Part shown: in pieces, positions 14,075 to 59,431 of the stretch
Layout: each line of letters begins with the position of its first letter
Numbering within the stretch: the stretch's first letter is position 1
DNA from: an uncultured Ulvibacter sp.
Lineage (GTDB): Bacteria > Bacteroidota > Bacteroidia > Flavobacteriales > Flavobacteriaceae
DNA length: 64,000 nucleotides
Assembly (NCBI GenBank): GCA_963974915.1
Contig: CAXBES010000014.1
Coordinates: 49,633-113,632, forward strand
Reading direction: 5' to 3'
Translations under genes and position numbers: made by a program
The notes under the pieces: generated by a model
Told to the model about the DNA's origin: nothing
The model's database searches: none
The model's input: the letters and a program-made list of their open reading frames with translations, nothing else

Positions 14075-15481
14075 TCATAAAAAATACAGACCGGTTAGAT
14101 AAACTACTACTCCAATTAACATCACCAGAATCGTATAGGGTAAGATCTCTTTCGCTTTTAATTTGGTGATTCCCAACAAGGGCAGAGCCCAAAAGGGTTG
14201 CAACATATTGGTAACCTGATCTCCGTATGCCAAAGCCATAATTGCTTTCGGTAACGGAACACCCAATTTTAGGGCAGATTCTATTACTATCGGACCTTGA
14301 ATTGCCCATTGACCACCTCCACTTGGTACAAAGATATTAACCAACCCGGCACTAAAAAAAGTGAAAATCGGGAGCGTTTGTGTAGTAGCAATAGAGACGA
14401 AAAAATCTGAAACCTGCACTACAAGACCACTTTCGCGCATAATCCCCATAATTCCGAAGTACAACGGAAACTGAATTAGAATTCCACTGGCTCCTTTAAT
14501 AGCTTCCTCTACCGCATTCAGAAAACTGGAAAAGCTACCGTGCAAAATGAGCGCTAAACCTAGCATAAAGAAATTGAGCAAATTTGGAGTGATAGCCAAA
14601 CTTTCTAAATTCTGGAAATATTGATAAAAGAAGGCGATGAGAATTAAAACTCCAAATCCAATTCCAAACACCTTCGAATTGTCAAGGCGTTCGGCACCTT
14701 TCAACTTGTTCGCTTCAAAAGTTTCACTGTGATAAATAGGTAAATTTGTTGGGGTCGCTTTAGCATTTCTTCCTAAAAAGTATAAAAACAGGGGAATGAT
14801 CAGTAATAAAATTCCGAAGTGCAACAGATTAAAACCGCTAAATATTGTATCGCTAAAGGGAATTAAATTTGGAAGAGTACTTGACATATTTACATCCCCA
14901 ATACCGGTCATTAAACTTGCCAAATGTCCGTTTTCGGCAACCTTTAAGGGCGCCGAACCACTAATTCCGCCATGCCACACCATAAAGCCAACATATCCTG
15001 AAGCACCTACCAGAGGATAGTTAATATCGAAATTACGTATTTGCGAAGCTTCCGCTACTTTTCTGGCGATAATAGCTCCAAAAATAAGTCCTAAGCCCCA
15101 ATTAAAAAAAGACACGATCATTGTAGTGCTACTTACTAACATTACTGCATTTGAAGTATTACTCACCAAGTTTGTGAGCTTTACAATTAGGGAGTTCATT
15201 GGTTTGCTTAGCACTAAAATGTGTCCCAGTACTAATATTAGCATCATTTGATACGCAAATACCAATAACGCATTGTTCCAAATTCCGCTTTCCCAAAATG
15301 ATAAAATTGCCAGAAAATGGTTTTCGTTCTTTGGCGCATCGGTTAAAAAAAGTGCCAAAAGCATCGTGACAACCGTTAAAATTATAGCGATCGCAAAAGG
15401 TGAAGGTAAATATCGCTTAAAGATGGTTTCGATGGTTGAAGTGATGTTCATAGGGTAAAAATAAGAAAAGCTTAATGACAC
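14075..15481 (-). CDS. atoE: short-chain fatty acid transporter AtoE family
   Basis: Strong similarity to AtoE over the full length (…VPSGGGQWAIQGP…ALAYGDQVTNMLQPFWALP…). Confidence 0.85.
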   Translation of the reverse strand: MSLSFSYFYPMNITSTIETIFKRYLPSPFAIAIILTVVTMLLALFLTDAPKNENHFLAILSFWESGIWNNALLVFAYQMMLILVLGHILVLSKPMNSLIVKLTNLVSNTSNAVMLVSSTTMIVSFFNWGLGLIFGAIIARKVAEASQIRNFDINYPLVGASGYVGFMVWHGGISGSAPLKVAENGHLASLMTGIGDVNMSSTLPNLIPFSDTIFSGFNLLHFGILLLIIPLFLYFLGRNAKATPTNLPIYHSETFEANKLKGAERLDNSKVFGIGFGVLILIAFFYQYFQNLESLAITPNLLNFFMLGLALILHGSFSSFLNAVEEAIKGASGILIQFPLYFGIMGIMRESGLVVQVSDFFVSIATTQTLPIFTFFSAGLVNIFVPSGGGQWAIQGPIVIESALKLGVPLPKAIMALAYGDQVTNMLQPFWALPLLGITKLKAKEILPYTILVMLIGVVVYLTGLYFL

Positions 15482-15550
15482 ATATCAAAAATGTGAAATT
15501 AAGCTTTAATTTATTGAGTGTTCGAATTACCTCAACAACACTTTTATCTT

Positions 15551-15885
15551 AGTTCGATTACGCAGATCAAAGATTTGCTATCTCGCAAAGACTTCCTGGG
15601 ACCCCGACGCTAGAGGTCGGGATTAGTTCGATTACGCAAATCAAAGATTTGCTATCCTGTGATGACTTCCTAAGACCCCGACGCTAAAGGTCGGGATTAG
15701 TTCGATTACGCAAATCAAAGATTTGCCATCTCACAAAGACTTCCTGAGACCCCGACGCTAAAGGTCGGGATTAGTTCGATTACGCAAATCAAAGATTTGC
15801 TATCCCGCAAAAACTTCCTGAGACCCCGACGCTAAAGGCCGGGATTAGTTCGATTACGCAAATCAAAGATTTGCTATCTCACTAA
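15551..15885. repeat. 74-bp tandem repeat array, about 4.5 copies, two conserved hairpins per unit
   Basis: Copies start at 15551, 15625, 15699, 15773 and 15847 (the last is partial). Each carries GCAAATC-aaa-GATTTGC and CCCGAC-gctaaag-GTCGGG hairpins separated by a 20-nt variable segment. Confidence 0.9.
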
Positions 15886-16260
15886 CTAAAAAGGGAGGTC
15901 GTCGTGATCTTCTTCGTTTAGATCATTTACAGGTTCAAAAGCATCTTCAGGAGGCATTGGAGGCATATTATTAGATACAGATTGATCAATATTTTCAATT
16001 CTCCAACCGGTTATAGAATTAAAATACTTCGTTTCACCCTGTGGATTAACCCATTCTCTACCGCGTAGATTGATACTAACTTTTACATTTTGTCCAACTT
16101 GATACGTATTTAACAGGTCGGTTTTATCCTGTACAAATTCTACTAAAATATGTTGTGGATATTGCTCTTCGGTAGTAATTACCATCTCTCTCTTTCTAAA
16201 ACCATTGTTTCCATAGGTCTTAGTTTCATCGATCATTTTTATTTTTCCTTGAATTTCCAT
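15886..16260 (-). CDS. DUF3127-like protein; SSB-like OB fold with SSB C-terminal tail
   Basis: 124 aa. The core resembles an SSB OB fold (…LRGREWVNPQGETKYFNSITGWRIE…). Acidic C-terminus ending DHDDLPF, compare ssb at 39484 ending DDDDLPF. Confidence 0.6.
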   Translation of the reverse strand: MEIQGKIKMIDETKTYGNNGFRKREMVITTEEQYPQHILVEFVQDKTDLLNTYQVGQNVKVSINLRGREWVNPQGETKYFNSITGWRIENIDQSVSNNMPPMPPEDAFEPVNDLNEEDHDDLPF

Positions 16261-49853: not shown

Positions 49854-51374
<1,521 letters not shown>

Positions 51375-51587
51375 TTAGTACTATAGGAGTGCTTTAAGCA
51401 CCCTGATTTTCAACGGTGCAAAGATAGTTTTTTCTATTCTAATTTTGCAATGGAATTCTCTAAAAATTTACAGCTATTTTTATGGGGGCTTCTCTTTCGC
51501 TATACAGCCTTCTAAACCGAACTTCGATAAAGATGCCTCGCTTCAGAGAACCGCGCTTTCAGCGTTACACGCCTGCCAGCTCTAAGC

Positions 51588-51663
51588 CACAAGGCGAAGG
51601 CGGGGTAACCTGCTTCAATCACTGCCACAAGGCGAAGGCGGGGTAACCTGCTTCAATCACTGC
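51588..51663. repeat. perfect 2 x 38-bp tandem duplication (CCACAAGGCGAAGGCGGGGTAACCTGCTTCAATCACTG)
   Basis: Copy 1 at 51588-51625, copy 2 at 51626-51663, identical. Confidence 0.9.
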
Positions 51664-51797
51664 CCCAAGACCCCTCTGTCGCTAGTAGCGACATCTCCCC
51701 TAAGAGGAAGAAAAAACATTTTCATCCAAGACATCTCATATCATAAAATCATATGATCACGTCTGCCTTTTACCGAGAAATGCCACAGACGTTGAGA

Positions 51798-52691
51798 CTA
51801 AAGCGGCTCACAGTAGCCTCTAATCTTCTCCTTAAATAACTGCATGACCCTTTGCATTAAATCATTTTCTTTTGAAACCGACCGTCCGTCTATCTCCACT
51901 ACCGGCGTCAATTCACCCATAGTACCGGTTGCAAAGACAGCATCTGCATTAATAAACTCACTAAGCGACAAATCTGCTTCAACAATTTCGATTCCCTCTG
52001 CTTGGCACATTTCCATCACCGTATTTCTGGTAATTCCCGGTAAGCAGGCGTGTGCATAAGGTGTAAAAACCTTACCGTTCTTCGTCATAAAGAGATTACT
52101 CCCGTTTAGCTCTGCTACAAACCCTCTTTCATCTAACATCAACCCGGCATCTTTACCGGCTACATTCGCCTGGATCTTTGCTATAATATTATTCAACAAA
52201 TTATTATGATGGATCTTACTATCTAAAAATTGTGGAGCATTGCGCCTCTGACTGCTACTTATTACTTTAATTCCGCTGTCATTGTCATACACCAACGGTT
52301 TCCATTCGGCCAAAACGATTAAACACGAGCCACTTTGGTTCAAGCGAGGATCCATCCCGCTGGTGATCTTTTCACCTCGTGTTAATGTTAGTCGGATATG
52401 GGTGTCGTCGTGCATTCCATTGGCATCCAGAGTTTGTTTAATCGCCTGTTTTATAAATTCTTTGGTAGGTATATCACCAAAGGCAAGGGTCTTAGCCGAT
52501 TCATGTAACCTGCATAAATGTTTATCTAAGCAAACAATTCCTTCAGGGTAAACCCGTAAGCCTTCCCAAACCGCATCCCCACCCTGAACACTACTGTCGA
52601 ATACCGAAATTTTCGCTTCATTACGAGGATAGAGTCGGTCCTTAATATAAATTTGAATAGTATCGTTCTTGGGATTAGATTGTTGTAGCAT
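51798..52691 (-). CDS. class IV aminotransferase (branched-chain/D-amino acid aminotransferase or aminodeoxychorismate lyase family)
   Basis: Fold type IV PLP signature of about 297 aa (…E(R/L)GF…). Confidence 0.65.
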   Translation of the reverse strand: MLQQSNPKNDTIQIYIKDRLYPRNEAKISVFDSSVQGGDAVWEGLRVYPEGIVCLDKHLCRLHESAKTLAFGDIPTKEFIKQAIKQTLDANGMHDDTHIRLTLTRGEKITSGMDPRLNQSGSCLIVLAEWKPLVYDNDSGIKVISSSQRRNAPQFLDSKIHHNNLLNNIIAKIQANVAGKDAGLMLDERGFVAELNGSNLFMTKNGKVFTPYAHACLPGITRNTVMEMCQAEGIEIVEADLSLSEFINADAVFATGTMGELTPVVEIDGRSVSKENDLMQRVMQLFKEKIRGYCEPL

Positions 52692-52692
52692 A

Positions 52693-53418
52693 TTAATCGT
52701 TTTTTAGTATATGTTCTCGCAAGGTTTCGTAATAAGGTAGTGCCTCTTGTAACAAGGGTGAAAGTCTTTCAGACAAAGGCTCAGAGCTGCTTTTCTGTAG
52801 TGCAAATCCTTCAGAATTATGAACATTCTTATACCAATGTGGTGCCCAAACTCCGTCCTGAGGTATTCCTCCTTTGTTCCAGCTAAGCATTTCTTCAGAA
52901 TAAGACAAGTCTAATAAACCGCAAAGCTTCTTTAGATAACTTGACGGTGCTTTTAACAGCTCATCGCTATCAATAACTATTGGTGTTCTATTGCTTTCCT
53001 TCAGAAATAAAAACAATTCCGAAGCCTTTTTAACACCAATATCATCGAGTGTTGGGTTTTCTATCACTTTTGAAAATGAAGCGATCAACTTTTTAGGGTG
53101 ACGTATTAAAATTACATTCTCCCATTGGGTTATATATTTGGGGTCATTAGACAAATAGTGATGTGCCATTCCCTTTACGAACACATTTTTACCTGTCGCC
53201 AAACTATTTATTTGTGCAACGATATTATCTTCTTGCTGCTCCATCGTATTTAGGATCGCATCATGAGCCGGGTGGTTTATTATTACATTCGCATTCTTTA
53301 GATAAAAGGCATAAAAAGGTTCGTCTAAAACTTCAAAATCGGCGCGTTGTGCAAAGGAATACATTATTGCCGTCGAAAGATTTCTGGGCCCCGAAATGAG
53401 ATTAACGACTTTGTTCAT
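52693..53418 (-). CDS. sulfotransferase-like P-loop protein
   Basis: [10 protein letters not shown]-loop-like 5'-PSB motif. The start at MNKVV (53418) is preferred. Confidence 0.4.
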
Positions 53419-53469
53419 GTCTATAAAAGTAAGCGAAAAATTTAGAAGTCTGGAGTCAAAAGTCAAGAG

Positions 53470-53562
53470 ACGGGAGTCGGGAGACGGGAGTTGGGAGTTG
53501 GGAGTTGGAAGTTGGGAGTTGGGAGTTGGGAGTTGGGAGTTGGGAGTTGGGAGTTGGGAGTT
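53470..53562. repeat. heptanucleotide microsatellite (GGGAGTT)n, about 13 units (minus strand AACTCCC)
   Basis: Direct reading: GACGGGAGTC GGGAGAC then GGGAGTT x ~10 with one GGAAGTT variant. Confidence 0.95.
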
Positions 53563-53640
53563 TAATAAGTATAAATATAAAAGACCCAAACATTACTGTC
53601 TGAGTCTTTCTACTTTAAAATTTGATCTTTTTCTTTAGGT

Positions 53641-55488
53641 CTACTCTACAGTAACCGATTTTGCCAGATTACGTGGCTGATCTACGTTTCTATTTAGCAT
53701 AACCGCAATGTGATACGACAATAACTGCAATGGAATAGTAGTCACCAATGGAGTAAGCGTTTCCGGAGTATTAGGCACTTCCATAATATAGTCTGCCATT
53801 TCTCTAACAACGGTATCCCCTTTAGTCACTACCGCGATGATAACCCCTTTTCTGGATTTAATTTCCTGAATATTACTTACCACCTTATCATAATGATTAC
53901 TATTTATAGCAACCACTACCACCGGCATGTTTTCGTCGATCAAAGCAATTGGTCCGTGCTTCATTTCGGCAGCGGGATATCCTTCGGCGTGAATGTATGA
54001 GATCTCCTTTAGCTTTAGTGCTCCTTCAAGGGCAACCGGGAAATTGTAACCTCTTCCAAGATAAAGGAAATTAGATGCATCTTTAAATACCTCGGCAATT
54101 TCTTTAATCTTATCGTTACTCTTTAACGCCTCTTCCACATGCCCCGGAATCATTTCCAGTTCTCTAAGGTGCATAACATAATCGCTTTGCGAAATGGTAC
54201 CTTTTACCTTTGCAAGTTTAAGCGCTATCATTGTAAGTACAGTGATCTGTGTAGTAAATGCTTTAGTTGAGGCAACCCCGATCTCTGGACCTGCATGAGT
54301 ATATGTCCCACTGTGTGTCTCCCGAGAAATGGTAGATCCTACCACATTGCAAATTCCGTAAACGAAGGCTCCTTTAGATTTTGCCAGCTTTATCGCAGCG
54401 AGGGTATCTGCAGTTTCACCACTTTGTGAAATAGCGATTATTACGTCCTTTTCGGTAATAATTGGGTTTCTATATCTGAATTCGGATGCGTATTCTACCT
54501 CAACCGGGATTCTTGCCCAATCTTCAAAGATATATTCGGCCACTAAACCGGCGTGCCATGAAGTACCGCAAGCAACTATGATTATACGATCGGCATTGGT
54601 AAATTTCGATATGTAATCTTCTAAACCACCTAATTTAATAATCCCTTTTTCTGCTAATAGGCGTCCTCGATAGGTATCTTTAATAACCGAAGGTTGCTCG
54701 TAGATCTCCTTTAACATAAAGTGGTCGTAACCCCCTTTTTCAATTTGTTCAATATTCAGTTTTAATTCTTGAATATTTGGAAGAACAAGACTGTCACTTT
54801 TTATTTTACGAACCTTTACGTCTCTCCCTCTTCTAATAATAGCCATTTCTTCGTCTTCCAGATATATGGCATTATTTGTGAATTCGATAAATGGGGAAGC
54901 ATCACTGGCTACGAAAAATTCGTCATCTCCAATTCCGATGGCTAACGGACTCCCCAATTTAGCCACTACTATTTCGTCTGGCTTTCTTCTGTCGAATAAA
55001 GCGATAGCATAAGCGCCAACCACCTGATTTAATGCTATCTGAACAGCTTTTCCAAGCTTCACATTTTCCTGCTTTTTGATCTCTTCTATCAAATTCACAA
55101 GGACTTCTGTATCTGTATCAGAAGTAAAGGTATATCCTCTGTTTAAAAGTTCCTTTTTGATAGAAGCGTAATTTTCTATGATCCCATTGTGAATGATCAC
55201 AAGATCTCCGCTATTAGAATAATGTGGATGAGAATTTACATCGTTAGGAACTCCGTGTGTCGCCCAACGTGTATGCCCAATTCCTAAGGTTCCCTTGGTC
55301 TCGATCTCTTTGGCTACTCGTTTCTCTAGGTCAGCTACTTTTCCCTTTGTTTTACTTAATTGAATATCTGTTCCATCAAAAAGTGCAATTCCCGCACTAT
55401 CATATCCTCTGTATTCTAAACGCTTTAAACCGTTGATAATTATAGGAAAGGCTTCTCTATTACCAATGTAACCAACTATTCCACACAT
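53641..55488 (-). CDS. glmS: glutamine--fructose-6-phosphate aminotransferase
   Basis: MCGIVGY N-terminal Ntn Cys and two SIS domains; 615 aa. Confidence 0.97.
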   Translation of the reverse strand: MCGIVGYIGNREAFPIIINGLKRLEYRGYDSAGIALFDGTDIQLSKTKGKVADLEKRVAKEIETKGTLGIGHTRWATHGVPNDVNSHPHYSNSGDLVIIHNGIIENYASIKKELLNRGYTFTSDTDTEVLVNLIEEIKKQENVKLGKAVQIALNQVVGAYAIALFDRRKPDEIVVAKLGSPLAIGIGDDEFFVASDASPFIEFTNNAIYLEDEEMAIIRRGRDVKVRKIKSDSLVLPNIQELKLNIEQIEKGGYDHFMLKEIYEQPSVIKDTYRGRLLAEKGIIKLGGLEDYISKFTNADRIIIVACGTSWHAGLVAEYIFEDWARIPVEVEYASEFRYRNPIITEKDVIIAISQSGETADTLAAIKLAKSKGAFVYGICNVVGSTISRETHSGTYTHAGPEIGVASTKAFTTQITVLTMIALKLAKVKGTISQSDYVMHLRELEMIPGHVEEALKSNDKIKEIAEVFKDASNFLYLGRGYNFPVALEGALKLKEISYIHAEGYPAAEMKHGPIALIDENMPVVVVAINSNHYDKVVSNIQEIKSRKGVIIAVVTKGDTVVREMADYIMEVPNTPETLTPLVTTIPLQLLSYHIAVMLNRNVDQPRNLAKSVTVE

Positions 55489-55498
55489 AGTTTTCTAT

Positions 55499-57088
55499 TT
55501 AATTAGGTTCTGTATAATAAATTTGAAGTTTTAGTCTTTTCTCAGGGTTCGGACTATTATTACCGTGCAGGATAGTTCCCTGGTGTGAGATCACACCACT
55601 TGCAGGTACCGATTCTACTCCGGGATCCAGCATTTCTTCTAAACTTTGGAAATCTGGCGTAGTAACATTTTGCGATACGATCAAACCTAATGGAACATTT
55701 GTAGAATCTTTGTTGATCAAGTTACTGATATGATGGGTAATTTTAATTTTATAGTAATCCCCAATTTCATCGGTCCCACGTTCTAAAATACCCAAATGCT
55801 CGTTTAAGGCTTCGTAAGGAGAAAGACCTGCGGTAATATCAAGAGAGTAATCTACCAAAGCATTACTATTTTGAGCATCATAGATAATAAGTCTTTCCGG
55901 CTCTGAATCTCCGCCTGCAATCATACTTTGATCTACGTAAAAAATAAGATTTGCTTCATTTACCAACCATTTTTGATCTCTAAGAGTTTCCAACTCATCT
56001 GCAACTCCATTGTCATCCAGATCTTCTCCAAAGAGCTCAATTATGGATACAATTCCTTCTCCCCCTCTAACGTAAAGGTTTTCTTCTCCTTCAACTGTAT
56101 TTGGTTCAGAAAGTGCGCTCTCGATTGGTCCCGGAAGTGAAGTTTCATAGACATTAACAGCAACAGGACCTAAAGATATTCCAAGATCGCCCGGGCTATT
56201 TTCGGTAATAACATTTCCGTCTTCATCGGTATAAGTGATTTCAGACTGGTAGTACATCGTGATTTTGCTCTCTTCCAGATCGAACAAGAAAAGGTTATCA
56301 CCCGCATTTCCTTCAACATCAAAATAGATACCTCTAAAATACTCTCTGAAATTATTATTGTTTATTAATGAAACTGTTCCCTCTTGCGCCATGATCTTCT
56401 GAAGAAAGAAGTCCAGCGGTAATTTTACACGTAAACCGGGAGCTAATACAACCTCATCGGGTTCATCACCTTCATCATCTCCGTCTTCTACTAAAGTTAC
56501 TATTCCTTGGTTACTAGGTACGAAGTCGTTAATGAGCGTAATCAGTCCTTCTTGGCTATCTACTAAATAGCTTTCAAATAGTGGGCCTTGATTAGAGTAA
56601 TATTTTTGTTCCTCCTGAAAACCTGTGTCGGGATCCAAATCTCTCAAAAAGTAATTAGATTCATATACCGTGATGTTTATTGGGTTGCTTCCATAAACGG
56701 AATCTAACTCAAAGGTGGTAACGTCTCCATCTACGGTTTCTTCACTGTAAAATGGCATATAAAGCACTACACTATCCAGAACAGGGTTGGTACCGAAAAC
56801 AGGAGCAGTATCATCTAAAAACACCTGAGTAAGGAGATTTACGGTAGATTTTCCGTAAACAGGATCGTTATACACTCCTAATTGATAGGTAGGTAAACCG
56901 TTGGTTTGAACTCCATTTAATTTTCTGCTATAACTTATAACAGAATTACTTTCGTACAAGGTTGCGTTAATATTCTGATCTCCAATAATATTAGTTCCTA
57001 TTGTACTAAAATCTTCTTCACAGGATGCAAATCCAATTATTAAAAATAATATTGCCGCAAGTTTTGGCAATGTATTCTTTATTTTCAT
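55499..57088 (-). CDS. DUF4270-like lipoprotein
   Basis: Lipobox (GFASCEED). Conserved position between glycogen synthase and glmS in Bacteroidota. Confidence 0.55.
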   Translation of the reverse strand: MKIKNTLPKLAAILFLIIGFASCEEDFSTIGTNIIGDQNINATLYESNSVISYSRKLNGVQTNGLPTYQLGVYNDPVYGKSTVNLLTQVFLDDTAPVFGTNPVLDSVVLYMPFYSEETVDGDVTTFELDSVYGSNPINITVYESNYFLRDLDPDTGFQEEQKYYSNQGPLFESYLVDSQEGLITLINDFVPSNQGIVTLVEDGDDEGDEPDEVVLAPGLRVKLPLDFFLQKIMAQEGTVSLINNNNFREYFRGIYFDVEGNAGDNLFLFDLEESKITMYYQSEITYTDEDGNVITENSPGDLGISLGPVAVNVYETSLPGPIESALSEPNTVEGEENLYVRGGEGIVSIIELFGEDLDDNGVADELETLRDQKWLVNEANLIFYVDQSMIAGGDSEPERLIIYDAQNSNALVDYSLDITAGLSPYEALNEHLGILERGTDEIGDYYKIKITHHISNLINKDSTNVPLGLIVSQNVTTPDFQSLEEMLDPGVESVPASGVISHQGTILHGNNSPNPEKRLKLQIYYTEPN

Positions 57089-57223
57089 CTATTCTATATG
57101 TTTTCTAAAAGGAAGATACCCACCTGGTGTTAGCGCAGGAAACGTCATTAAATCATATCCTTTGTCGTTTTGTTGTATGCTAATGGGGCATTTCAAAAGC
57201 ATTCTTCTTGTATTCTATTTACG

Positions 57224-58030
57224 TTAAAGTACTTTAGTCTCGTAAAAGTCTAAATAAGCCTGTGAAAAATCATCAAAATTATGATACTTTAACACAGGTT
57301 TGTCGAGATTGTTAAGAAACTCTTCCAGTTCTTCAGGAATTTCTTCGGAACCAACAATAACAGCATCCGAATTATTAATCGCAACCTTCATGACATTCTC
57401 ATAACTCGGTGTCTCTAAAGGTGCAATAACATCTTCTTCGATCGCGTCAAATCTAATTTTATCAATAGTTGTATTATCTAACGTACCGGTGAAGCCTTGA
57501 TTGTATACAGAAGTAACTATTTTACTATTTTCGAATAAGGGTTCGTTTCCGTAGTAATTTCTCAGGTAAAGTGGCAAAAACGAAGCCAACCATCCATGAA
57601 CATGGATAATATCTGGTGACCAATTCAGCTTTTTCACAGTTTCTATTACCCCTTTTGCGAAGAAAATAGCACGTTCATCGTTATCCGGAAAGAAAACTCC
57701 ATCTTCATCGGCGTACGTTGCTTTGCGTTTAAAATAATCTTCATTATCTATAAAGTATACCTGCATTCTTTCCTTCGGAATTGACGCTACTTTAATGATA
57801 AGTGGCATATCAAGATCGTTAATCACAAGATTCATCCCCGAAAGGCGAATCACTTCGTGTAGTTGGTGTCGACGCTCATTAATATTGCCATAACGTGGCA
57901 TAAAAATTCGAATTTGCCCGTTATTGTTGTTTACCATTTTAGGGGCTTCAAACGACATTGAAGAAATCTCGGTCTCCGGTAGGTATGGAATAACTTCAGA
58001 AGACACGTACAAGACTCTCTTATCTTTCAT
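57224..58030 (-). CDS. glgA: glycogen synthase-like protein (GT5 N-terminal domain only, short form)
   Basis: Starch-synthase catalytic-domain N-terminus (…VSSEV…P…K…GGL-like), only 268 aa. Confidence 0.6.
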   Translation of the reverse strand: MKDKRVLYVSSEVIPYLPETEISSMSFEAPKMVNNNNGQIRIFMPRYGNINERRHQLHEVIRLSGMNLVINDLDMPLIIKVASIPKERMQVYFIDNEDYFKRKATYADEDGVFFPDNDERAIFFAKGVIETVKKLNWSPDIIHVHGWLASFLPLYLRNYYGNEPLFENSKIVTSVYNQGFTGTLDNTTIDKIRFDAIEEDVIAPLETPSYENVMKVAINNSDAVIVGSEEIPEELEEFLNNLDKPVLKYHNFDDFSQAYLDFYETKVL

Positions 58031-58134
58031 AAATCAGTACTTTATTGGCTTTCAAATTAAAAACACGCAAAATTACGAAAATTTATGAAGATTGCGCTTA
58101 ATTTATTAAGTTAGCTGGTTATTAATTCTACTTT

Positions 58135-58986
58135 ATGGGTATCTATACCAATCGGGAATTACTTTCCGAAGCAATTTCTAAAAATTTTAAAGGTAAAAAG
58201 ATAGGTTTTGTTCCCACCATGGGCGCCTTACACAAGGGACATTTATCATTGGTGAAAAGAGCTCTGCAGGATAATGATGGAGTCGTAGTAAGCATTTTTG
58301 TAAATCCGACGCAATTTGACAATGCAACCGACCTGGACAAATATCCGCGTACCCTTGAGAATGACGTGAGCTTACTGAAAAGTATAAAAGGGAAAGTGCT
58401 GGTGTTTGCTCCCAATGCTTCAGATCTCTATAATGGGAAGGTGGTTTCTAAAAAATACAACTTCGGAAAGCTCGAAAATGAAATGGAGGGTAAACATCGG
58501 AAAGGACATTTCGACGGAGTTGGTACAGTGGTAAATCTTTTACTTCGTGCAGTAGATCCCGATAAAGCATATTTTGGAGAAAAAGATTTTCAGCAATTAC
58601 AAATTGTAAAAAAACTATTAGAAATAGAGGGTCTTTCTGTAAAAATAATTGGCTGCCCCATTGTTCGTGAATCCAATGGTCTCGCAATGAGTTCTCGGAA
58701 TAAACGACTTACAAAAGAACAGTTTGATGAAGCCGCATTTATATATAAAACTCTTTCAGAAGTAAAAAATAAATTTAATACACATTCCATCACTCAACTC
58801 ACGCGCCATGTTCACAAAGTGTTTTCTGAAAATAAGATGCTCACTCTCGAATATTTTGAGATCACCAACGAAAAAAATCTGAAAACGGCGATCAGGAAAC
58901 GTGATGGAAATACATACCGCGCTTTTATAGCTGTTTTTGCCGGCGATGTACGATTAATCGATAATTTATCGCTTGGAAAATGGTGA
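58135..58986 (+). CDS. panC: pantoate--beta-alanine ligase
   Basis: GFVPTMGALHKGH HIGH-like motif; 283 aa. Confidence 0.95.
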   Translation: MGIYTNRELLSEAISKNFKGKKIGFVPTMGALHKGHLSLVKRALQDNDGVVVSIFVNPTQFDNATDLDKYPRTLENDVSLLKSIKGKVLVFAPNASDLYNGKVVSKKYNFGKLENEMEGKHRKGHFDGVGTVVNLLLRAVDPDKAYFGEKDFQQLQIVKKLLEIEGLSVKIIGCPIVRESNGLAMSSRNKRLTKEQFDEAAFIYKTLSEVKNKFNTHSITQLTRHVHKVFSENKMLTLEYFEITNEKNLKTAIRKRDGNTYRAFIAVFAGDVRLIDNLSLGKW

Positions 58987-59080
58987 TCGGCAATAAATGA
59001 TTATACCAGCTATTTTCGTCTTAATTCAGATTTCAGACTTTACACTTTAGAAATTTTGAAATAAGAAGTATCTTTGCGCC

Positions 59081-59431
59081 ATGTTAATACACGTAGTAAA
59101 ATCTAAGATTCACAGAGTAAAAGTTACAGGTGCAGACCTTAACTACATTGGAAGTATCACGATCGATGAAGATTTGTTAGATGCCGCAAACATTACCGAA
59201 GGTGAGAAAGTTCAAATCGTAAATAACAATAACGGTGAACGTCTTGAAACGTATGCAATTCCCGGGCCACGTGGGAGTGGTGAAATTACTCTTAATGGAG
59301 CAGCGGCTCGTAAAGTAGCTCCCGGCGATATCCTTATTCTAATTACATACGCTTTAATGAGTATGGAGGAAGCCAAGAAATTTAAGCCTGCATTGGTGTT
59401 TCCAAATGAGGAAAATAATCTCCTAACCTAA
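59081..59431 (+). CDS. panD: aspartate 1-decarboxylase
   Basis: …[21 protein letters not shown]… with Gly-Ser processing site context. Confidence 0.93.

Follow-up and report, generated by a model that had tools for sequence, protein, structure and literature searches.

Contingency loci built on simple sequence repeats (SSRs) are classically those of host-adapted pathogens, and the genes that such repeats usually control are variable surface or restriction genes. In the Bacteroidota, DNA inversion is the usual means of phase variation. Heptamers form the most abundant class of long SSRs in most prokaryotic genomes examined (Mrazek 2007, as relayed in PMC4679880). Within the Flavobacteriaceae, Gramella forsetii and Aequorivita sublithincola carry long intergenic heptamer arrays, and their close relatives are without them (PMC4679880). 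An intergenic heptamer long SSR is therefore a kind of element already reported in this family. A heptamer that has been linked to gene expression is that of Haemophilus influenzae, where (ATCTTTC)n, equivalent to (TGAAAGA)n, is found in 13-38 copies 69-106 bp upstream of the hmw1A and hmw2A start codons (PMC2651432). There the repeat, located in the 5′-UTR, folds back on a G-rich arm further downstream; RNase III cuts the long hairpin that results, and hmw expression is inversely proportional to copy number (PMC12721329).

Here we describe a heptanucleotide array in a 64-kb stretch of DNA (hereafter the window, meaning the whole stretch analysed) from an uncultured marine member of the Flavobacteriaceae that is present in Tara and other ocean metagenomes. 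We document how the array differs among conspecific contigs and related lineages, and weigh what its length could mean for the operon downstream.

Results

The array lies between the glmS terminator and a conserved gene pair

For brevity, the gene of the Sulfotransfer_5 family is referred to as ST, the class IV aminotransferase gene as AT, and the interval from glmS to ST as the spacer. Read along the minus strand, the glmS stop is followed by an intrinsic terminator, the array, a conserved promoter-proximal segment, the ST ATG and the AT gene (Table 1). The preliminary description of this DNA had placed about 13 tandem GGGAGTT units between the glmS stop (53641) and the ST ATG (53418), both on the minus strand, and our analysis bears this out in number and in place. 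Tandem Repeats Finder (TRF) reports 13.0 copies of a period-7 unit with the consensus GGGAGTT at 53472-53562 (94% matches, score 154), and gene coordinates and Pfam domains agree on the position. The unit reads GGGAGTT on the plus (template) strand and AACTCCC on the minus (coding) strand. Unit parsing extends the array to 17 in-register 7-mers on the minus strand, from 53562 down to 53444, of which ten are perfect AACTCCC and seven are variant or degenerate. A repeat-family search likewise detects a weaker 7-base periodicity down to about 53444-53442, which adds some 28 nt of array toward the downstream gene. The core is the part that differs among the alleles described below; the count and sequence of the six degenerate units are also allele-dependent.

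Table 1. Features of the glmS-ST-AT region, in window coordinates.
Feature	Coordinates	Strand	Description and basis
glmS (glutamine-fructose-6-phosphate aminotransferase)	53641..55488	-	615-aa ORF; Pfam GATase_6/7 and two SIS domains
Intrinsic terminator hairpin of glmS	53579..53610	-	Terminator scan: 14 pairs, loop of 4, tail ATATTTATAC
Core microsatellite	53486..53562	-	11 units, (AACTCCC)7 AACTTCC (AACTCCC)3; TRF, unit parsing
Degenerate in-register units (six)	53444..53485	-	GTCTCCC GACTCCC GTCTCTT GACTTTT GACTCCA GACTTCT; unit parsing
Candidate -7 box 1, TAAATTTT	53437..53444	-	7/8 matches to TAnnTTTG; prediction only
Candidate -7 box 2, TACTTTTA	53424..53431	-	5 nt before ATG; TAnTTTTA, invariant columns in alignment A1
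ST, Sulfotransfer_5 family, first gene past the array	52693..53418	-	241 aa; Pfam PF19798, E 7.7e-48
AT, class IV (branched-chain/D-amino-acid type) aminotransferase	51798..52691	-	Pfam PF01063, E 1.8e-50

The array is far above chance expectation. With up to 2 mismatches allowed, a two-unit probe matched 13 times in the window (0.27 expected), a count reached in none of 100 shuffles. Eleven of these matches fall inside the array; the other two are isolated, carry 2 mismatches each and stay within the shuffle range (largest 2). This is the only heptamer array within the 64 kb; the many arrays per unit seen in Beggiatoaceae and Cyanobacteria genomes have no counterpart in the window. Rfam returned no match at gathering thresholds for the whole window and none at E<=1 for 51300-53700. 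The array consists of identical short units in tandem and is long enough for slippage, with a longest pure run of 49 nt in the window and of more than 55 nt in allele C. Its flanks are unique, with the terminator on one side and the TACTTTTATAGACATG region on the other. As a head-to-tail repeat of a 5-11-nt unit that is intergenic, sporadic and absent from close relatives, it falls within the class of long SSRs and heptamer direct-repeat arrays (Mrazek 2007; MacGregor 2015).

The first repeat unit begins 17 nt past the terminator stem and is directly abutted by the U-rich tail (53578-53563). In both minimum free energy (MFE) and centroid folds the terminator is the dominant stem, and a homologous hairpin is present in the sister lineage L233. 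Judged from these models, the glmS intrinsic terminator looks strong. The GlmS protein occurs as an identical copy on 18 metagenome contigs.

Downstream of the array, AT starts 1 nt past the ST stop codon and scores below all NCBIfam equivalog cut-offs. In 67 of 80 loci (L011-L090), ST and AT are same-strand neighbours, with AT downstream in 47 and upstream in 20, and the loci span Bacteroidota, Verrucomicrobiota, Proteobacteria, Actinomycetota and others. Because this adjacency is kept across phyla, the gene content points to a conserved two-gene module that is probably housekeeping-like, unlike the variable surface or restriction genes under SSR control elsewhere. Across these loci AT is better conserved than ST (65-82% versus 40-67% identity).

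Conspecific contigs carry an allele series in 7-bp steps

Looking up the 241-aa and 298-aa forms of ST as exact proteins gave no match, because public gene callers shorten this ST copy to 223 aa. Conspecific contigs were instead found via the GlmS, AT and AtpD proteins and their cluster members. In these contigs ST and AT together are 97.7-100% identical and the 5.8 kb upstream 98.6-100%. Between conspecific haplotypes, ST and AT diverge by about 2.2-2.3% at the nucleotide level, versus 1.1-1.4% over the glmS-containing 5.8 kb (53641-59400).

Variation in tract length between isolates, as the preliminary description had supposed, is evident from these contigs. They carry five array alleles, and all differences among the resolved spacers are multiples of 7 nt, amounting to 14, 35 and 63 nt relative to allele A and also to 28 nt (Table 2). 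In addition, variant units are amplified in blocks, for example (AAATCCC)4 and (GACTCCC)4, a pattern that reads as a signature of slippage or unequal exchange. Given the multiples of 7 and the amplified blocks, the array has undergone slippage-type length change in whole 7-bp units. Among the alleles, pure runs comprise between 6 and at least 8 units. All five conspecific lineages retain at least 5 units in which 6 or 7 of the 7 bases agree with AACTCCC, and the array is lost in none. Selective retention of CCC in the variant units was not significant, with four of five variant types keeping it (P about 0.3, hand calculation).

Table 2. Array alleles among the conspecific contigs.
Allele	Source	Spacer	Array
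A	Window, Tara scaffold, metaSPAdes contig	222 nt	17 in-register units
B	Five assemblies	187 nt	12 in-register units
C	Three samples	Too long and pure to assemble	Begins AACTCCC (GACTCCC)4, then pure run > 55 nt
D	One contig	208 nt	15 in-register units; blocks (AAATCCC)4 and (GACTCCC)4
E	Two assemblies	159 nt	8 in-register units

Resolved alleles that were seen repeatedly are identical across assemblies (A in 2, B in 5, E in 2). An assembly artefact is ruled out for these three alleles, which were reproduced by different assemblers. Consensus assemblies hide minority length variants, and the identity of alleles across assemblies is accordingly one at the consensus level; at that level, the recurrence of identical alleles in 2-5 independent assemblies argues against very fast turnover. 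The assemblies of allele C all break in the array: SPAdes contigs end after exactly 55 nt of pure repeat, and the 100 N in the Tara scaffold (L002) are a placeholder. Logan contigs of the allele-B haplotype end after 31 nt of pure repeat. The exact end points in Logan and SPAdes contigs reflect k-mer limits. Public gene calls at these loci (equivalents of 5851-6072 in L003, L217 and L221; 2248-2448 in L231; 1-834 in L223 and L224) either cut ST down to 223 aa or let it run on across the repeat as far as the edge of the contig. They also place spurious ORFs of 66-73 aa inside the repeat on the opposite strand.

Related lineages have the same operon and no array

In the GTDB representative set, which does not include this species, the closest ST is 67% identical and belongs to an Altibacter metagenome-assembled genome (L011). 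A large protein collection holds one close ST cluster at 95% identity, and the next are at most 74% identical, under Aequorivita or Ulvibacter names. Two further lineages have ST proteins 74% (L233) and 72% (L234) identical to that of the window. The order glmS-ST-AT-atpD is kept in L233, L234 and Altibacter L011, with atpD only partly present on the short L233 contig. No tandem repeat was found in the spacers of these three lineages, which measure 124-151 nt. Alignment A1 shows the array inserted directly behind a conserved ...TTAACTC... just past the terminator tail. Short direct repeats of the ACTTTC type in the sister sequence are a plausible seed for the array, as far as sequence comparison can suggest.

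Two Aequorivita-like lineages have spacers of invariant length, 41 nt in 7 places and 431 nt in 9 places, among the matches listed, and no SSR was found upstream of ST in either of them among those matches. The array is thus absent from five related lineages, although the same operon and the proximal element are present. Since the spacers of L233, L234, L011 and the Aequorivita-like lineages are free of SSRs, the ST-AT operon does not appear to gain such repeats repeatedly.

Candidate promoters lie downstream of every repeat unit

Flavobacterial sigma-A promoters carry TAnnTTTG at -12 to -5, as determined by start-site mapping in F. psychrophilum, in which leaders have a median length of 24 nt and leaderless mRNAs make up 5.5% (PMC9723704). 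In the window, both candidate -7 boxes are situated downstream of all repeat units. Box 1 (TAAATTTT) would put the transcription start near 53432, for a predicted leader of 14 nt, and is only loosely conserved in the other lineages of alignment A1. In allele A only, a TTG at 53466-53464, within a degenerate unit, stands 19 nt upstream of TAAATTTT; under the box-1 model the alleles differ at the -33 position.

Box 2 is the better conserved element. TAnTTTTA-N5-ATG, a motif located past the array, does not vary among the lineages of alignment A1, and TAnTTTTA is found 4-5 nt before the ST start codon in all lineages examined (L011, L012, L233, L234, L235 and L242). Among the Aequorivita-like lineages, L235 carries TACTTTTA-N5-ATG and L242 carries TATTTTTA-N4-ATG. 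The -33 region of box 2 (GACTCCA) is the same in all alleles. We infer that box 2 functions as a promoter or a translation signal. As a sigma-A -7 box, TAnTTTTA could give an essentially leaderless ST mRNA, which would be unusual for a flavobacterium; alternatively, it could be a translation-initiation signal.

Relative to the predicted promoter positions, the variable core spans about -54 to -143 and stays 41 nt or more upstream of box 1. A proposal of the preliminary description, that unit number alters promoter spacing, does not survive this layout: because every unit is upstream of both predicted -7 boxes, unit number cannot alter the -33/-7 spacer of either candidate. What it would alter is the DNA upstream of about -40 or, under the box-1 model, the -33 sequence itself. 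A sigma-70-type scan of the region gave 4 promoter-like matches against 4.0 expected from shuffles. A promoter between the terminator and the array, which would place the repeat in the leader, is unlikely; the candidate found there was a weak sigma-70-like match overlapping the terminator. The array is most likely upstream of the transcription start.

Other repeats in the window and the same heptamer elsewhere

The window has a second intergenic tandem repeat at 15549-15918, between the minus-strand ORFs 14075-15481 and 15886-16260, with about 5 copies of a 74-nt unit. The first three repeats of the reference are 89-92% identical and the last 72%. Each unit contains two small hairpins (GCAAATC...GATTTGC and CCCGAC...GTCGGG), with an RNA fold z-score of -3.45, and this repeat yielded no Rfam match and no tRNA. 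Between the AT stop and the atpD start (51360-51797) is a GC-rich, strongly folding spacer of 438 nt (z -2.5) that includes an exact 38-nt duplication at 51586-51661, the copy number of which differs among conspecific haplotypes (438 versus 399/400 nt). Here alleles A and B are the same, E differs by the 38-nt copy only and C by a handful of substitutions. In allele C a hairpin is changed on both sides from GTCGCTACTAGCGAC to GTCGCCACTGGCGAC with pairing kept. The corresponding spacer in Altibacter L011 is only 142 nt. A search of the AT-atpD spacer against Rfam gave no match; the spacer is perhaps a structured RNA that has escaped annotation, or else an inserted element.

The heptamer AACTCCC in at least 3 copies is found on at least 120 metagenome contigs and 6 viral contigs. 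That AACTCCC arrays form a family with a shared gene setting was considered and rejected, as the 126 metagenome and viral contigs among the matches listed show every orientation and position; these arrays are uninformative about the function of the one in the window. Among high-GC contigs, many of which have names that point to soil or rhizosphere, an inverted GGGAGTT-like array is found within 200 nt in 35 of 90 arrays among the matches listed (L091-L216, for example L097, L099, L101 and L106), and the predicted hairpins of such inverted pairs, among the same matches, have -30 to -36 kcal/mol. On these folds, the paired arrays look like a palindromic intergenic element made of the AACTCCC heptamer. 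The array in the window has no inverted partner. A full-text search of a literature library for the AACTCCC repeat sequence found no paper.

Discussion

Our preferred reading, to which we give an even chance, is that the array is a lineage-specific, slippage-born heptanucleotide VNTR that is tolerated between a terminator and a promoter and has at most a graded effect on the operon. It would have arisen by slippage within the short stretch that separates the glmS terminator from the promoter-proximal region of the ST-AT operon, and would now act as an essentially neutral spacer upstream of the core promoter. Because the array is upstream of the predicted core promoter, its copy number would not serve as an ON/OFF switch of spacer length. 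Any influence would probably be confined to graded promoter tuning, in which the AT-rich upstream DNA of the relatives is replaced by a C-rich, quadruplex-prone tract; a longer array would also move the terminator tail further from the promoter. Several observations sit less easily with neutrality. The sole heptamer array in 64 kb adjoins a candidate promoter, at least 5 units are kept in all five conspecific lineages, the TTG at N19 is found in allele A only, and nearly all variant units retain CCC, a tendency short of statistical significance.

A phase-variation switch at the ST-AT operon is possible in principle. The array could be a contingency locus or "volume control", in which high-frequency slippage would alter ST-AT transcription through distance, helical phase or upstream DNA structure, as at nadA, or, under the box-1 model, through the altered -33 region. 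The length polymorphism in 7-bp steps directly upstream of a candidate promoter, the uninterrupted runs, 6 to at least 8 units long, an allele C long enough to break assemblies, the -33-like TTG of allele A and the precedents of upstream SSRs that modulate expression (PMC2791445, PMC2651432, PMC12721329) all speak for it. Yet the array is not between the -33 and -7 elements of either candidate promoter, the alleles are identical across independent assemblies at the consensus level, five related lineages have no SSR at this operon, the target gene pair is conserved across phyla and the host is a free-living marine flavobacterium. We therefore hold this explanation to be doubtful, while taking it seriously. 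Its fullest form, a true contingency locus in which a template-strand quadruplex-forming heptamer slips and tunes or switches ST-AT, with ocean populations holding mixed expression states, we consider improbable. The quadruplex could also matter in its own right: the plus strand, once unwound by transcription-driven supercoiling, would fold, with i-motifs on the C-rich strand, and block RNA polymerase on its template or alter promoter opening, and the same structure would drive the instability of the array. The canonical G3 tracts with 4-nt spacers noted in the preliminary description are present at the motif level, as all six overlapping (G3N1-7)4 motifs of the 38% GC window fall in the array (53472-53558, plus strand). 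With RNA parameters, the G strand has an MFE of -23.3 kcal/mol when quadruplexes are allowed versus -5.3 without them. However, the G4Hunter score of 1.21-1.27 barely exceeds the usual threshold of 1.2, tracts of three guanines with 4-nt loops would have moderate stability, and the prediction for duplex DNA in vivo is at the motif level. Related lineages manage without the element, and preferential preservation of G3 tracts among the alleles is not significant. As a functional element of its own, the quadruplex strikes us as very unlikely.

Other explanations invoke the RNA or the protein that the repeat could encode. Rho-utilisation sites are untranslated, unstructured stretches of RNA of about 70-80 nt or more in which C greatly exceeds G. 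Read-through RNA of the array, about 90-120 nt and C-rich, could be such a site, a back-up terminator or insulator that shields the ST-AT promoter. The 77-nt sense-strand core is 57% C with no G, the array RNA is wholly unpaired in MFE and centroid folds of the whole spacer, and the array is placed directly past a terminator and before the next promoter; if transcribed by read-through, it would be an ideal Rho loading site by these models. This is nonetheless a minor rival that we rate as quite unlikely, because related lineages have no C-rich tract here (one has a spacer of only 41 nt) and the upstream intrinsic terminator, with its 14 pairs and U-rich tail, looks strong already. Moreover, several alleles have G in many units (GACTCCC), and other AACTCCC arrays, among the matches listed, have no preferred orientation with respect to the ends of upstream genes. 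A hairpin in the 5′-UTR like that of hmw was rejected, as the repeat RNA is unpaired in the fold and the sense strand has no G-rich arm. Finally, the repeat might be translated, as an N-terminal extension of ST or a small ORF, so that unit changes would shift the reading frame. A 298-aa ORF with a TTG start (52693-53589) does span the repeat, and small ORFs are called on both strands. However, AACTCCC has no stop codon in any frame, so that frames left open by default are no surprise; in the 241-aa form the Pfam domain begins as early as residue 8, and the best 120 of 2261 ST homologues (E<=1e-40) are 238-256 aa long. The start-proximal region is also conserved among lineages (A1), and alleles that differ by 14, 28, 35 and 63 nt keep no common frame, the differences not all being multiples of 3. 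The coding interpretation is ruled out on domain start, homologue length and allele length, and we give it practically no credence; the NSQLPTP extension is an artefact, as the preliminary description had held.

The tolerated VNTR of our preferred reading would be of use even if it only drifts, as a strain marker for an uncultured marine lineage and as a documented source of broken contigs and wrong gene calls in metagenome assemblies. Should unit number tune the operon, the array would amount to an SSR rheostat in a free-living bacterium of the ocean. Were it a true contingency locus, SSR phase variation would extend beyond host-adapted pathogens and into the Bacteroidota.

Comparison with described systems helps to place the array. 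In mechanism, the H. influenzae hmw heptamer and the meningococcal nadA tract come closest. Like hmw1A and hmw2A, it has a 7-bp unit, an intergenic position and a copy number that varies between strains (PMC2651432); unlike them, it is upstream of both candidate promoters, and its target is not an adhesin. Moraxella catarrhalis uspA2 shares a strain-dependent copy number, with 6-23 AGAT repeats between promoter and gene (as relayed in PMC4679880). According to that account the AGAT repeats are within the transcript, in the 5′-UTR, whereas the array here is most likely upstream of the transcription start. The TAAA tract of Neisseria meningitidis nadA is alike in position, as an SSR upstream of the -35 element from which any effect would be exerted through the spacing of distal elements and not through the -35/-10 spacer (PMC2791445). 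It differs in its 4-bp unit, in the NadR operators and IHF site that flank it and in its host-adapted pathogen host, and no flanking operators are evident here. In description, the nearest relatives of the array are the heptamer arrays of Bacteroidetes and Cyanobacteria (TAACTGA and others; PMC4679880). As with these, the host is a member of the Flavobacteriaceae (Gramella and Aequorivita in the described cases), the array is long and intergenic, contigs break inside it and close relatives have shorter, repeat-free spacers. In contrast to them, the unit here is AACTCCC, a single array is present in 64 kb, and an allelic series is documented at the population level.
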